Part shown: positions 21,001-30,000 of the stretch, one piece after another
Layout of the letters: every line of letters starts with the position of its first letter
Numbering within the stretch: the first letter of the stretch is position 1
Source: Escherichia phage vB_EcoP_phi367
Direction: 5' to 3' (one strand)
Length of the DNA: 58,966 nucleotides
Sequence record: PV189406.1
Position numbers: made by a program

Positions 21001-24000
21001 GGCGCAGTCACCGAAATTTCAGCAGACGTTTTTGTCCATTGACGCCGACCCGCAGCACGCACAGCTGACTGATCGCCAGAAAATGGATCTGGCAAAAGAG
21101 CGTGTTGCCGATGAGGTGCGCGCGCAGCTGGCAACCGATCCTGAATTGCTGGCTGTGAATGCCATGGCGGCAAAACTGGGTGACGCACAACTGTTTAATC
21201 TGGTGACACGAGGCACAGCGAAGACCGTTAAAAGCGGCATTGATCAGAAATGCCACGGAACAGGGGGCGATTAATGCGGCGCAGGGCGGCTATTCACGCT
21301 ATCAGGAAAACATGGCACTGCGTGATACCGCCGGAATGGATGTGTCACCGTGGGAGGGCGTGGCTGACGCAACGATCGAAGGTGGTAGCTCTTGGTGCTG
21401 CGATGGGGGCACCATTCGGTGCGGTTGCCGGATATCGTGGCAGACGTCAGGCGGCAGATGAAGCCGCCATGCGTGAGGCTGAAGTCGTACAGCAGGACGA
21501 CGCAGCCCCGCAACCAGAATCTGTTGATCTGGTGGCGCAGCATCGTGAATCCATGCAGGGGATGAATCGCGAGCAGCTTCTGGAGCAGTATGCTGATGCG
21601 GATATGGCGACAGAGGGTGACGCATCCGCAACTCATCGCCGGGAAGCCGCCAGCCAGCTGTTGAATGAACTGGACGAACAGGCGAAGCGACAGGCTGTGA
21701 TGAATGAGCTGAAGGCGAAGCCGCGTTCTGAACTGCTTGAGGAATACCGAAAACTCAGCCTGAAGGAAGGGCGTACTGATACTGAAGAGCAGCAGTTACA
21801 GGCTATCCGTGATGTGCATTCGCCCTCAGCAGGAAGTGCCAGACCGGAGGCACAGCCACAGCCGGAAAATGCGGAGGATGGTAACGGGAGCATTTACCCG
21901 ACGGTGCGGTTCCGGGACCCGAATGAAGTCCGCATTGAAATTAACGGGAATGGTGCGTCCAGACCAGCGGAACGCATTGAAAAGGTGCGCCCGGACAACC
22001 GTTATTTCACGGATGAGAAAAGCGCCATGGGGAGTGATGTTTTCCGTAATGCCGCCGCCACCGGCCTGAAACCGTCCGTAGTGAAGAAAGGCGAGAATCA
22101 ATATGCTGTTGAAATGGATAATCCTGCGTTCTCTGAAGATGTGGCAACGGAAACCATTAACACCCTGGCTGACGGAGAGCGTATTGCTGATGCTGACCCG
22201 ATGGAGCAGCCCGCGTTCATGCGTGACCCACGATTCCGTGGTTTCACGGGGGATGATACGGAGGTACAGGCCCGCCTTGCCCGTGGCAACGTGCCGACGG
22301 CAGAGGAGCTTGTACGTTCACAGATGGCTGAAGGTGATGCCGGTCCGACAGCACAGGAGTTAACTGAGCGTCCACGCCTGCCCGCTCCCGGCGATATTCA
22401 TCCCGGACAGGGATATCCGTTACCGGGAGAGGTGGCGCGTACGCCGGATGAGAATCAGGCAGGACGTGGTGGTCGTTTTACCACAACCGGTGAGGTTAAG
22501 GGCCAGAGTTTCCAGAAAGGACAAGCTCCGGCACCGGAAAACGCCGCTGGTCGCCAGGGGGAAACACTGGAGGGTGAACTGGTTCGTCGTGGTCTGCCGT
22601 CACCGGATGCGCAGAACGCGACAGCACCGGTACGTGAAGGGCTACCGGCTCCTGACATTGCGCGTAATGTTCGTATGCCTCAGCCTGAATCACTTCCCCG
22701 CACTGTACGGGACTCACTGCCTGAGCTTGCACAGCAGGCAGAAGTACGCCGACAGGCCGGAGGAAATCGTGACATCCCGCAGCCTGAGACAATCGCACCT
22801 GAATCTGAAACAACTGTCTCTACTGACAGGGAAGCTACCGTGCGCGGAGGTGAAGTCAGGGGCAAAAAAATTGAAGACTTTGGCGAGGAAATTAAAGGGG
22901 CAGCCAAACACCGTTATGCACAGCTTGCTGAAACACTGGGTAAAACGCTGGAAGACAGGGATTATGCCACGCAGCCGCTGAGCAAACTGTTCCCGAAACC
23001 GGACTACGCAAAACTGGCGAGCGAAGGGGCTGATGCTGACACCCTGGCAATGATAGCGCTGTATCGTAGCGATATTCCGGTGAAGACGAAACACAATACG
23101 GCAGGCTGGGGGGAGAGCGTAAAAAAAGTACGACACAGTGTATCGGAAATGCTGAACGGAACGGTCAGCGCGAAACGCCTCGCAGAATGGATGGAAGGCA
23201 GAATGCCCTCCCGTTACGCGGACACCTGGCAACTGTTACGCACTCTGCCACCCTCACAGATGGACAAGGCTTCTGCTTATCGGGTGGTATCGGGTGTGTA
23301 TCAGGCGGCAGGAGGGAAGCGTTACGATCCGCCACAGAAACTTTATTCACTGCGCAATAAGGACAATAAGGGGAGTAACCTCTTTTTCTCGGAAAGCAGG
23401 GATGAATTACTGGCAAAGGCGAAAGTCTGGTTTGCAGAGCAGGAGGAAAAATCACAGGCGAAAGGTGATGAAAAAACAGCACCGTCTCCGGATGACAAAA
23501 TCCGCTTTGACGTTTACCGGAATACCCGCAGTGGCGATATTTTTATCGCTTACGGTAAAAACAAAATGCGGGTGAGAGGTGGCTTTAAGTCAGCCAGTGA
23601 TGCGCGTAAGTACATTGATTTACATCGTGATGAGCTTGTTCGTCATGTGAAGGAGATGCGGGAGATTTCGCGTGAGGAGCAGCGCAACGCCACCAACCGC
23701 GACCGTACCGGACCAGAACGCCGCAAGGGGGATGTTTCACCGGAGCAGTTCAGTGATGCGTTTGGTTTTCGTGGTGTGCAGTTTGGTAATTATGTGGAAA
23801 GTCCGCGTCGTCAGGCTGATTTGAACCGGGCTTATGACTCGCTGCATGACCTTGCGGAAGTACTGAATGTACCGACAAAAGCGCTTTCTCTGAACGGTCG
23901 TCTTGGCCTGGCATTTGGTGCCCGTGGTAAGGGTAAGGCGGCGGCACACTATGAGTCAGGTGAGGTGGCAATCAACCTGACAAAAGGTAACGGACCGGGT

Positions 24001-27000: not shown

Positions 27001-30000
27001 TCTGCCGTATACGCCAGTCTGCGTGGTAAAACCCTCACGGGCAACGGTGCGCAGTGGCAGAAGGTGTGGAAAGAGTTTGTTGAGGACGGAGGTAAAACCG
27101 GCTGGTTTAACATGGGTGACCTTGAAGGCCAGCAGAAGGAAATGGATCGCCTTGTATCGCTGGCGAAGGGAGGATGGAAAGGCCAGAGTATCGGTGCATG
27201 GAATTCGTTCCTTAACCTTGTCGAGGATGCCAACGGGGCGGTTGAAAACGCTCTGCGTCTTTCTGCCTATAAACACGCCCGTGATGCCGGTTTGTCACGC
27301 CAGCAGGCGGCGTCTCTTGCCAAAAACATGACGGTGAACTTTAACCGTCGTGGTGAGCAGGGAGCGCTGATGAACTCGCTGTACATGTTCGCCAACGCCA
27401 GCATTCAGGGGACCGCAAACCTGGTGAGAACGCTCGGACATCTTAATGGCGACGGGCCGTTACTGGAGCGCCTTCGCTGGAAGAATCTCAATGTACCGCA
27501 GAAAATCGCGCTTGCAGCTGTGGGAGCGGGTTATCTGCTTGGCTCGCTTAACCGCAGTGTTGCGGGGGAGGATGATGACGGGGTTAACTGGTATGACAAG
27601 GTGCCGTCTCATGTGAAAGAGCGTAACCTCGTCATTATGAAATCGGTGTTCGGGGGCAAGGCCGGAGAGTACTGGAGTATTCCTCTGCCTTACGGGTACA
27701 ACGTTTTCTTCCTGCTCGGGCATACCGCTGAAGGTGTGGCGGCGGGTGACCTGACGGCGTCCCGTGCTGCCGGTAATGTTGTTGGTGGTGTGCTTGGTGC
27801 ATTCAGCCCGATTGGCAGTGAGACGTCGGAAACACTGTCCGGGGCATTGCTGAAAAATGCAGCGCCGACCATTCTGCGTCCGTTTGCGAACCTTGCCATG
27901 AATGAAAACTTCATGGGGGCGCAGATTTACCAGGAGAACATGCCGTTTGGTACACCAAAACCTGACAGCCAGCTGGGAAGACGTTCAACGCCAGAAGCGT
28001 ACAAGGCGTTTGCATCCTGGCTGAATGCGTTCTCAGGTGGCAGCCAGTACCGTTCAGGCGCGGTGGATATCACACCGGAATCGCTGAAATACTGGGTGGA
28101 CTATATCTCTGGTGGTACAGGGCGCTTCATTTCCAAAACCACGGATGCGGCGGTGAAATCGCTGAACGGTATTGATATACCGGAACAGCAGGTGCCTTTC
28201 CTGGGGAAAATTTCAGGTGAGGTGATGCCGTATGCTGACCAGCAGAAGATGTACGACCGGATGACAGAGGTTGCGCAGTATCACGCAGAGCTGAAGAGTC
28301 TGACCGGCGCAGAAAGAACGGCGTTCATTGACGAGAACAACGGAAAATTGTCGATGAACGGGCTTATGCAGGATACCCGGAAGAGACTGAAGGATTTGCG
28401 TAAACAGCGTGATGCCATTTACGCCGACAGTACTCTCAGTCTGGCGCAACAGTCGGCGATGGTGAAATCGGTAGAGCGGGATATGAAAATTGCCGTGGAT
28501 CGGTTTAACCGCGAGTACAACAAAAAAGTGGGAGTGGATTAACAGAAATGGCCCCGTACGGAAGTGCGGGGCTAATGTGATTGGGGAGGGTGAGGATACC
28601 TGACACATCAGAGGTGGCGAGGGATTCCTCCCTTGCAGAGGTCTTTCTTCGTTATCAGTGCCGTCACAATGACGGTAATACAGAGATGAGCAGGGTGATT
28701 AACATCGCCTTTTGCTGCTTTCATTGCATTTCTCCCGCGATAGCTCAGGCGTATTTGTCAATATGCAGAAATATTGATGAACGAATGACGGTAAATACCC
28801 TACCCAGAAAATTAACGTAAATTCACATCGTAAACTTGCGTTAATTATCTGAAATATATACTTAAATCCCCTTAAATCTTTGGGGCGCTATTGGGGCAAA
28901 GTGTGGTTGTTTGGGGCATATTTGGGGCAAAAAAGAACGTATAAAGAACGGTGTAAAATCGATTTCTTTATGGTCAAAATGAGGTCTAACATATTGAAAA
29001 GTATATGCTCTTGGACGATCTTCGGTAATTCTGTGTTTTTAATGCTTCATGGTTTCAACATGTCTAAGGATATGGTTTATCATTTTGAAAAATATAATTT
29101 TATTTCATCCTCCTGGTCACTTTGGGGCACGTCTGGGGCACGGGCATTAAGGACATTATTCAACATGGCAACTTGAGTCACGCTGCACTCAGGCATCCAT
29201 GCACCATAAACATTGTAGACCATGCTGGCGCTGGAGTGCCCCATCTGTGACGCAATAAATGTCGGGTTTGCTCCGGCAGATAAAGCCCAGCACGCATAGG
29301 TATGGCGTGACTGATACGCTTTACGGGATCGGATACCCGCTCTTTTTATTGCTGAATCCCATGTCGCTCCGATGGAGCTTACCGCGTAGTTAATACCCGC
29401 CTTGTGATTCTTGCGAACGATTTGCGGACAGAAAACAAAAGTGCACTCGTGCAAAATTGTTCTTCCGTACTCGCGTAATTTAACAGTGATCTGATGCTGC
29501 CTGCCAAGACGAGTAAGCATCGCCTGGTTTTTAAGTGCTTCAATTGCTGGTGCCAGAAGATGTATAACCCGGTTAGTGCCTGCGTCAGTCTTTGGTAGCG
29601 TAAAATCACCTATTTTTGTAAAATTTCTTCGCACTGTTATCGTGCCAGCTTTCAGGTCGATATCCTCCCATGCAAGTGCGGCAATTTCACCGTGTCGCAT
29701 CCCTGTAAAAACAGCCACTGTCCAGAGGTTTTTGGTCTGTTGATGATGGCAGGCATCAATGAGACGGCTAAACTCATCTCTGGTCAGTGGATCCGGCACT
29801 GGTTTTGATTTCCTCAGCGGTGTTATTGAATTAAACGGGTTTTTCTCCAGATACCCGTTTTCGGCGGCAAAGCTGAACATTCCGGCTGTTGTTGTCATGT
29901 AATAGTTCACTGTGGGTACGGTTCTTCCTTTTCGGGACGTGCTGGTTTTCCTGCTTCCCTTTTCCCCGGTCAGTAAATCTTTCCTGATAAACAGCAGATC

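Follow-up and report, generated by a model that had tools for sequence, protein, structure and literature searches.

The giant late gene of Escherichia phage vB_EcoP_phi367: a probable internal virion protein with predicted peptidase and RNase-like domains, frame-broken in its sequence record

The genome record of Escherichia phage vB_EcoP_phi367 (PV189406.1; the window, i.e. the whole analysed stretch of 58,966 nucleotides) contains one exceptionally long open reading frame (ORF), running from ATG to stop at 21250..28542 on the + strand and coding for 2,430 amino acids (aa). What does a single protein encoded by 12.4% of the window do in a phage with a short tail? An original prediction, made from the sequence alone, had described this ORF (approximately 12% of the genome) at the structural module's distal end and suggested an internal or ejected protein with a zincin-like peptidase motif. 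The ORF and its extent were borne out, and we found a longer gene, 20153..28542, of which it represents the 3' 87%. Our reading as a whole, to which we assign a probability of roughly 0.75, is that this gene codes for the giant internal virion protein of Shiga toxin (Stx) phages, which would be packaged and ejected and would carry peptidase and ribonuclease (RNase)-like domains, and that its frame is broken here by errors in the record.

Extent of the giant gene and its orthologues

Alignment with the phages P13374 and phi315, together with a tblastn search using the phage 86 protein, placed the authentic start at ATG 20153, with the sequence GGAG located 7 nucleotides (nt) upstream. An uninterrupted frame of approximately 2,790–2,810 codons is absent from the window, where five 1-nt insertions divide the gene into four frame pieces. 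The relevant elements are as follows.

20116-20135, plus a T-run to 20141, + strand: terminator-like hairpin GCCCGGC-CATTGT-GCCGGGT directly 5' of the giant gene
20153..28542, + strand: full giant polyvalent virion-protein gene, taken as the orthologue of Sp5 ORF80, VT2-Sakai orf71, phi24B gp47 and PHROG 616, frame-broken here
20153..20632, + strand: first frame piece with the authentic N-terminus MAYSEEQRPE..., ending at TAA 20630-20632
20629, 20714 and 20721, + strand: 1-nt insertions that jointly restore the original frame, but through a stop codon
21243, + strand: 1-nt insertion (A) that moves the gene into the frame of a small ORF (21240..21461)
21250..28542, + strand: the 2,430-aa ORF of the original prediction, authentic from residue 46 on
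21384, + strand: 1-nt insertion (G) after which the gene is read in the 2,430-aa ORF's frame; 21250-21384 (residues 1-45) is out of frame
21816, 21841 and 21843, + strand: three 1-nt insertions (net +3) that scramble about nine codons within the ORF

Removal of the five inserted bases gave an open product of 2,794 aa, which compares with intact homologues of 2,783–2,811 aa (P13374 ORF78, phage 86 gp35 and VT2-Sakai orf71). Residues 1–2794 of this repaired product align with residues 14–2806 of VT2-Sakai orf71 at 96.8% identity. The protein size of 2,430 aa given originally could therefore not be upheld, and both this number and the start that had been left unresolved are record artefacts; properly read, the gene spans 20153..28542 and codes for approximately 2,794 aa. 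The accompanying remark that the first 45 or so residues look like out-of-frame translation proved exact, because the insertion at 21384 enters the 2,430-aa frame at residue 46. An alternative start, ATG 20114, which some RefSeq records use for a 2,806-aa version of the protein, lies at the foot of the terminator-like hairpin. In the following, domains are given in ORF numbering; numbering in the repaired protein is obtained by adding 364.

The giant gene is the final gene of the late/structural block and is followed by an integrase gene on the opposite strand, in agreement with its originally proposed position. The gene order (ORF79 homologue, giant gene, integration module) is the same in the window, phi315, P13374, phage 86 and VT2-Sakai. 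Altogether, 185 phage records matched the ORF at at least 90% identity over at least 80% of its length, with vB_EcoP_phi315 as the closest (99.6%), and the ORF is carried by 425/5,426 complete E. coli genomes, in which it is annotated as an LPD5/LPD38 domain-containing protein. All ten segments into which the protein was divided matched PHROG 616 in register (positions 1–2793). Judged by these sequence relationships, we regard the protein as the orthologue of Sp5 ORF80 and phi24B gp47, the giant virion protein that Stx-type phages with short tails (Sepvirinae) carry internally.

Published work is available on these orthologues. Sp5 ORF80 (ECs1242; orf71 in NC_000902), with 2,793 aa, is among nine essential morphogenesis genes, and its deletion left normal-looking, DNA-filled heads, no infectious phage and no binding of anti-tail-fibre antibody (Mondal 2016, PMC5155283). 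Mass spectrometry found phi24B gp47 (2,811 aa) to be abundant in virions, while the protein is invisible in the cryo-electron microscopy map; the authors propose that gp47 is encapsidated and acts as an ejection protein, leaving the particle once the tail needle has detached (bioRxiv 10.64898/2026.04.10.717836). The original prediction had named virion proteomics as a check on its candidate internal protein, and the published proteomics of the orthologue does detect the protein in particles. Likewise, its statement that no tape-measure-like gene is present, consistent with a short tail, is correct for this group of phages and in line with the near-identical podovirus phi315, in which none is annotated. 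The class of polyvalent proteins and its LPD, metallopeptidase (MPTase) and PBECR domains were defined earlier (Iyer 2017, PMC5512222). The protein, its class and the idea of its ejection are thus already published. The original prediction is supported on its three points (the zincin-like domain of a polyvalent protein, the candidate ejected internal protein and the short-tailed phage lacking a tape measure), but rediscovers known work.

We also considered whether the giant protein itself could be a tape measure. This identity was rejected: the genome is of podovirus type (Sepvirinae, vB_EcoP), and the gene follows the tail-fibre and accessory genes and codes for enzymatic domains.

Single-base insertions in the record

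A comparison of the window with phi315 revealed 47 single-base insertions and 2 deletions. All of the insertions except one (at 32583) fall within 13,177–23,471, with clusters of 13 within 13177–14341 and 11 within 18958–19099. The head genes, which extend over 9 kb, are free of insertions; identity to phi315 amounts to 99.9–100% in the flanks, with zero mismatches between 24 and 32 kb. The same insertions in the window were also seen in comparison with P13374, and over 20100–21500 the best relatives (97–98% identity) are 4–6 bases shorter than the window. Among 185 phage records and 426 records of E. coli genomes, the five insertions that break the giant gene are unique to PV189406.1. The insertion at 20629 creates the stop codon TAA 20630-20632. 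At 21816..21843, the scrambled stretch reads IRDVHSPSAGSARPEAQ in the window versus IRDVLRPQQEARPEAQ in phage 86.

We consider the frame-breaking insertions most probably to be sequence or assembly errors, because natural decay would not be expected to produce a 47:2 excess of insertions in a single stretch while the rest of the genome stays nearly identical. The alternative is that the breaks are real and that the phage holds a decaying or defective copy, in which the giant gene would be a pseudogene or would give N-terminal pieces plus a C-terminal product of 2,385 aa. This appears unlikely, although it can draw on the sheer number of lesions, with five frame-breaking insertions in the giant gene and dozens more in the adjacent tail genes, on a certain enrichment of insertions close to single-nucleotide polymorphisms, and on the fact that the gene is split in other records too (phi315; phi191; PHROGs 20690 and 26030). 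Beyond the skewed ratio and the uniqueness of the insertions among the records mentioned above, their restriction to one 10-kb stretch of a 99.9–100% identical genome argues against it, as does the essentiality of the gene in Sp5. The insertions truncate neighbouring late genes whose homologues are essential in Sp5, and the genome layout is that of a sequenced virion genome beginning at terL. One aspect nevertheless weighs against errors in the record: as an identical base adjoins only 16/47 insertions, the insertions are not of the classic homopolymer type, which leaves a truly decayed copy its small share of the probability.

Programmed frameshifting as a cause of the breaks was rejected, as relatives have one open frame at these positions and the insertions are unique to PV189406.1.

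Other genes in this part of the window are also interrupted. Homologues of 566-aa and 422-aa tail genes are broken (window ORFs 11773..13281, 13336..14010 and 14191..14754), and the 421-aa gene located 5' of the giant gene is reduced to an ORF of 258 aa (19307..20083). Overall, the record seems to be of low quality between 13177 and 23471.

Several public records hold the giant gene in pieces. In phi315, it is split by a 1-nt deletion that matches window position 23471 (phi315 approximately 22200–22321); in phi191, it is represented in BFVD entries by several proteins of 106–534 aa; and N-terminal fragments of the giant protein make up PHROGs 20690 and 26030. Therefore, the gene is often mis-annotated.

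Predicted domain architecture

The domains and segments identified along the protein are listed below, all on the + strand.

21376..21432, + strand: segment VALGAAMGAPFGAVAG, weakly hydrophobic and resembling a glycine zipper (sub-threshold match to Gly-zipper_YMGG, E 0.12)
21433..23310, + strand: E/P/Q/A-rich region of about 620 aa, without a family match beyond PHROG 616 and its fragments
23311..23760, + strand: Pfam LPD5 (ORF 688-837; E 1e-44), an alpha/beta domain of its own that precedes the peptidase core on the N-terminal side
23761-24489, + strand: MPT1, the first predicted zincin-like domain (ORF 838-1080), built from the strand GFRGVQFGN and a helix, then three strands and the HExxH helix, and, after a variable insert, a Glu-bearing helix; it combines ORF 838-997, for which Pfam has no model, with Pfam LPD1
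24010-24024, + strand: HEWFH motif (ORF 921-925), with S-L-D directly after it; conservation reaches at least 90% at H, E, H and the D at +3
24241-24480, + strand: Pfam LPD1 (ORF 998-1077)
24634..25002, + strand: MPT2, the second predicted zincin-like domain (ORF 1129-1251), covered by no Pfam or NCBIfam model
24811-24828, + strand: HEIIHH motif (ORF 1188-1193), the Stx-lineage form of the family motif HExxxHH
25408..25671, + strand: Pfam MuF_C (ORF 1387-1474; E 1.4e-17; 64.2 bits versus a cut-off of 27.6)
25741..28539, + strand: C-terminal module of about 900–930 aa, comprising LPD38, a glycine-rich hydrophobic segment and a charged helical tail
27493-27561, + strand: glycine-rich hydrophobic segment within the C-terminal module
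27586-28203, + strand: Pfam LPD38 (ORF 2113-2318)

The original prediction had rested on an HExxH motif preceded by FGFRGVQFGNY and had likened this region to the zincin-like domains of polyvalent proteins. Both motifs are present: GPGALAHEWFHSLDNYFG is found in the ORF and contains HEWFH, and FGFRGVQFGNY begins at ORF residue 838, 83 residues N-terminal of HEWFH, which falls in an unmodelled gap between Pfam LPD5 and LPD1. A search with residues 825–1100 retrieved 200 proteins, many of which are stand-alone LPD5+LPD1 proteins of 330–480 aa, and conservation was evaluated in 53 diverse homologues (positions such as H221 and E333 refer to the numbering of alignment A2). The GFRGVQFGN strand, LGLAFGARG, H221 of AAHY, H242-E243-x-x-H246 and D249 were at least 90% conserved or invariant. 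Inside 'LPD1', the same holds for E333 (invariant), R337 and E340 (at least 90%), which are located on helix 331–349 of the structural model.

This AlphaFold2 (AF2) model of MPT1 reached a predicted local distance difference test (pLDDT) score of 84.3 and a predicted template modelling (pTM) score of 0.79, and it places HExxH on an alpha-helix after an N-terminal helix and a three-stranded sheet. Structure prediction around the motif, which had been suggested as a check, returned a zincin-like fold and not a non-peptidase fold. A widespread phage-type MPTase clade is characterised by a His closing strand 2 and an Asp three residues past HExxH (Iyer 2017, PMC5512222); MPT1 shows both markers, namely H221 (AAHY, strand 221–223) and D249. 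In addition, the NCBIfam model CLCA_X (250 positions) gave a sub-threshold match that covers the gap region (E 1.4e-30, positions 20–119) as well as LPD1 (E 5.5e-9, positions 171–245), and therefore one unit spans both. Based on fold model and conservation, MPT1 is predicted to be a zincin-like metallopeptidase domain whose third ligand would be a Glu on the LPD1 helix. Pfam 'LPD1' accordingly appears to form the C-terminal half of this predicted metallopeptidase, with the Glu residues on it, and not an independent domain.

The best structural matches of the MPT1 and MPT2 models were ATLF/M34 zincins (PPEP-2/-3, lethal factor) and MtfA. In these as in the models, HExxH is part of a helix and a Glu follows downstream; in contrast, sequence identity is only 6–15%, and in MPT1 a long insert separates the two catalytic helices. 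Sequence searches of the PDB with the whole authentic ORF and with the MPT1 alignment profile returned nothing except noise at E >0.5. Pfam, searched in overlapping segments with E up to 5, offered no model for either HExxH region (the sole hint was Peptidase_M76, E 0.13), and the NCBIfam search gave the sub-threshold CLCA_X match only.

Stand-alone genes with the LPD5-zincin-LPD1 arrangement were observed in two further contexts. One lies among small early-type genes of a metagenomic phage, adjacent to its terminase/portal block and divergent from it (locus L004, 8001-9002). The other is located in an apparently ordinary bacterial chromosome, with ExbBD, molybdopterin and LpxI genes nearby (locus L006, 8001-9425).

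While the HEWFH domain described originally is real, the second motif, HEIIHH, had been missed. An exhaustive search of representative proteins with ORF residues 1120–1380 gave 414 relatives of MPT2, mostly proteins of 1,400–6,000 aa; a word-indexed homologue search gave near-identical fragments only. The family motif is LRHE-x-x-x-HHGL, and HExxxH is present in 123/130 relatives, with the motif of the Stx-phage lineage being one residue shorter than the family consensus. A Glu is invariant at +55 from the first His, and a second conserved Glu follows at +62. In the AF2 model, the core (residues 10–130, pLDDT 84–96) has a minimal zincin topology; structurally, MPT2 comes closest to ATLF domains that are inactive and bind PA, namely those of LF, EF and Certhrax. 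A Pfam search of ten small MPT2 relatives found no family in any of them. On this modelling evidence, MPT2 is a predicted second zincin-like domain that fits the HEXXXH clade of Iyer 2017 (PMC5512222).

The third catalytic-looking part is the MuF_C domain, which corresponds to PBECR, a predicted RNase resembling barnase, EndoU and colicin/RelE (Iyer 2017, PMC5512222). Among 33 homologues, conservation is at least 90% for the His of GVKH and the Ser of NRIASVYG, both of which are intact in the window, and a conserved His and Ser make up the configuration that Iyer et al. call active (PMC5512222). By homology, the domain in the window is a predicted PBECR RNase-like domain and not a metallopeptidase. 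The term 'MuF-C metallopeptidase' in the phi24B preprint is a mislabel, because Pfam MuF_C is the PBECR predicted RNase.

These central domains are enclosed by two modules that recur in other giant proteins. The first approximately 420 residues are found again at the N-terminus of 39/149 giant relatives, whereas the middle varies. The C-terminal module occupied the C-terminus in 20/20 giant relatives checked (proteins of 1,853–4,049 aa) and was 850–930 aa long in 18/20; about 80 residues are invariant in an alignment of seven C-terminal modules with 30–54% identity, and the module is common to PHROGs 14770, 10691, 9854 and 10089. A Pfam search of these seven modules found LPD38 only. Weakly hydrophobic, glycine-rich segments are present in both modules, including a second glycine-zipper-like segment at repaired residues 181–199. 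With regard to known structures, the N-terminal 444 aa had no PDB sequence match, and a PDB search with the profile of the C-terminal module likewise gave no match. One idea suggested by this pattern of sequence conservation is that the terminal modules may form a constant chassis around a variable middle.

The E/P/Q/A-rich region between the N-terminal module and LPD5 is probably an extended linker. In comparison with phage 86, the most divergent stretch comprises repaired residues 801–1200 (60–70% identity), i.e. the 3' third of this linker through LPD5. Identity to phage 86 gp35 is 94–100% almost everywhere outside window positions 22650–23850. This patch, located just 5' of the first peptidase, is mosaic or fast-evolving.

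Proposed function and relation to known systems

Taking together the orthologue literature and the architecture, the protein would be packed inside the capsid and would leave via the short tail, before or with the DNA, upon release of the tail needle. The N- and C-terminal modules might serve packaging, exit and spanning of the envelope, and the central enzymatic domains would act inside the host. There, the two metallopeptidases could process the polyprotein into working pieces and/or cut host targets, and the PBECR domain may act on RNA.

Several points weigh against this proposal. Apart from LPD38, the N- and C-terminal modules have neither a family nor a PDB match, and the role as a conduit is deduced from their conservation and the weak hydrophobic segments. 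The model of MPT2 is good only in its core, with an overall pLDDT of 71.5. Ejection of gp47 stands as a proposal in the phi24B preprint (bioRxiv 10.64898/2026.04.10.717836), and Mondal et al. interpret the ORF80 knockout as a tail-assembly defect (PMC5155283).

A more far-reaching interpretation would assign LPD5-zincin-'LPD1' the role of a self-contained effector protease that, after ejection, cuts a specific host protein of defence or envelope, beyond self-processing, and would consider the C-terminal LPD38 module a universal exit/translocation machine common to giant podovirus proteins with differing cargo. We put it forward tentatively and regard it as rather improbable. It is favoured because the stand-alone units of 330–480 aa occur in hundreds, some of them outside virion modules and even in a chromosome, and because LPD38 proteins are essential in two unrelated podoviruses. 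According to the literature, the unrelated 2,198-aa LPD38 protein of phage PTXU04 is, like Sp5 ORF80, essential.

Following the interpretation of Mondal et al., the protein could also be a tail-assembly factor, possibly an energy-using one, which builds or attaches the short tail and has no need to enter the host. DNA-filled heads without binding of anti-tail-fibre antibody, as obtained upon deletion of Sp5 ORF80, are what such a role would predict, and the same authors noted a match to COG1483 (AAA+) (PMC5155283). However, the loss of an internal protein seated at the portal could secondarily destabilise tail attachment, and gp47 lies outside the resolved portal-tail complex of phi24B though it is abundant in virions. 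Two peptidases together with an RNase-like domain represent the content of delivered polyvalent proteins, while searches of Pfam, NCBIfam and PHROGs turned up no ATPase family and the protein lacks a Walker A motif ([AG]xxxxGK[ST]). We therefore rate a dedicated tail-assembly factor as quite unlikely. For the same two reasons, the identity as an AAA+ ATPase suggested by COG1483 was rejected.

Similarly unlikely is the suggestion of the phi24B preprint (bioRxiv 10.64898/2026.04.10.717836) that the metallopeptidase degrades peptidoglycan and lets the ejection conduit cross the cell wall. Podoviruses must indeed breach peptidoglycan, and no lysozyme or transglycosylase domain that could do so was detected elsewhere in the protein. 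Yet the preprint assigns the peptidase to 'MuF-C', an RNase-like PBECR domain, and the zincin-like domains resemble endopeptidases that act on polypeptides (anthrax lethal factor, PPEP, MtfA, minigluzincins). Families of peptidoglycan hydrolases (lysozyme, transglycosylase and M15 or M23/LAS peptidases) gave no match in Pfam, NCBIfam or PHROGs, and no H.H motif was found. Moreover, stand-alone MPT1 modules reside in an early-type phage region and in an ordinary chromosomal context. Finally, a chance occurrence of HExxH in a non-enzymatic structural protein can practically be dismissed: even though no Pfam model covers either motif, only 0.044 HExxH motifs are expected per protein of this composition and two are present (P = 7.5e-4 for two or more; 20,000 shuffles), both motifs and the downstream Glu are at least 90% conserved in distant relatives, and the folds of both models correspond to zincins.

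Short-tailed Stx phages disseminate the genes for Shiga toxin, and this essential giant protein is the prime candidate for bringing their DNA across the envelope. Its catalytic-looking parts, two zincin-like domains and one RNase-like domain, are now placed to exact residues. The additions made here are modest, comprising the gene boundaries, the frame breaks, two peptidase domains not modelled in Pfam, the reinterpretation of LPD1 and the correction of the MuF-C label; they leave the picture known from Iyer 2017, Mondal 2016 and the phi24B study as it was. The arrangement of the giant protein inside the capsid and the substrates of its enzymes are questions already posed in the literature.

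Other features of the window place the phage among its relatives. Three tRNA genes (Met, Arg, Arg) lie within 51807–52587, after a Q-like gene (50832..51365), as in Stx phages, and no ORF of the size of stxA or stxB is present between the tRNA genes and the nanS-p-type esterase gene. It seems that the phage belongs to the Stx-phage family but is stx-negative. The 645-aa ORF at 52587–54524 is likened to the NanS-p esterase (phi24B gp84) by its SISSP motif and its size; phi24B gp84 is reported to be a proteolytically processed capsid decoration protein (2026 preprint, bioRxiv 10.64898/2026.04.10.717836). The collagen-like tail-fibre gene (8403..10667, GC content 62%) contains approximately 243 extra bases of a repeat of about 129 nt at 9657–10271, an excess implied by overlapping BLAST alignments with phi315.

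Compared with known systems, the closest counterpart is ORF80 of Sp5/VT2-Sakai, which after frame repair shares 96.8% identity end to end, the last position of the late operon and both HExx(x)H motifs; the window copy differs by its interruption through single-base insertions. Mondal et al. had a doubtful AAA+ match for ORF80, whereas the window protein has neither such a domain nor a Walker A motif. With phi24B gp47 it shares the Pfam set LPD5, LPD1, MuF_C and LPD38, as judged from the published description of gp47. While the phi24B preprint names a MuF-C metallopeptidase and proposes cleavage of peptidoglycan, the predicted peptidase folds found here are MPT1 and MPT2, which resemble protein endopeptidases.

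The protein also corresponds to the polyvalent proteins of Iyer et al. in being large and multi-domain, in its late-gene context and in its zincin-like MPTase hubs, PBECR and LPDs. LPD5, LPD1, MuF_C/PBECR and LPD38 all exceed the Pfam thresholds and stand beside two zincin-like domains, and the gene lies among late/virion genes, as expected for the phage type, to which LPD38 is restricted (Iyer 2017, PMC5512222). In contrast to our case, Stx phages are absent from that study (0 occurrences of 933W or Stx; PMC5512222), and the Pfam families derived from it split MPT1 into an unmodelled stretch and 'LPD1' of unknown function.

Giant proteins that the head takes up and that enter the host together with the DNA include the virion RNA polymerase gp50 of N4 and DarB and DdrB of P1 (reviewed in Iyer 2017). 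Like the window protein, N4 gp50 and P1 DdrB carry zincin-like MPTase domains, and the N- and C-terminal parts of the window protein weakly match PHROG 10089, 'DarB-like antirestriction'. The enzymatic cargo differs, as no RNA polymerase, methyltransferase or helicase domain was detected in the window protein with Pfam or NCBIfam. As functional analogues, we propose gp14, gp15 and gp16 of T7 and gp7, gp16 and gp20 of P22, which are located inside the capsid and expelled via the short tail to span the envelope. No relationship to them in sequence or fold was found, although no search was aimed at one. Where these phages use three proteins, the window codes for one polypeptide, and its predicted enzymatic equipment consists of peptidase and RNase-like domains instead of a transglycosylase.

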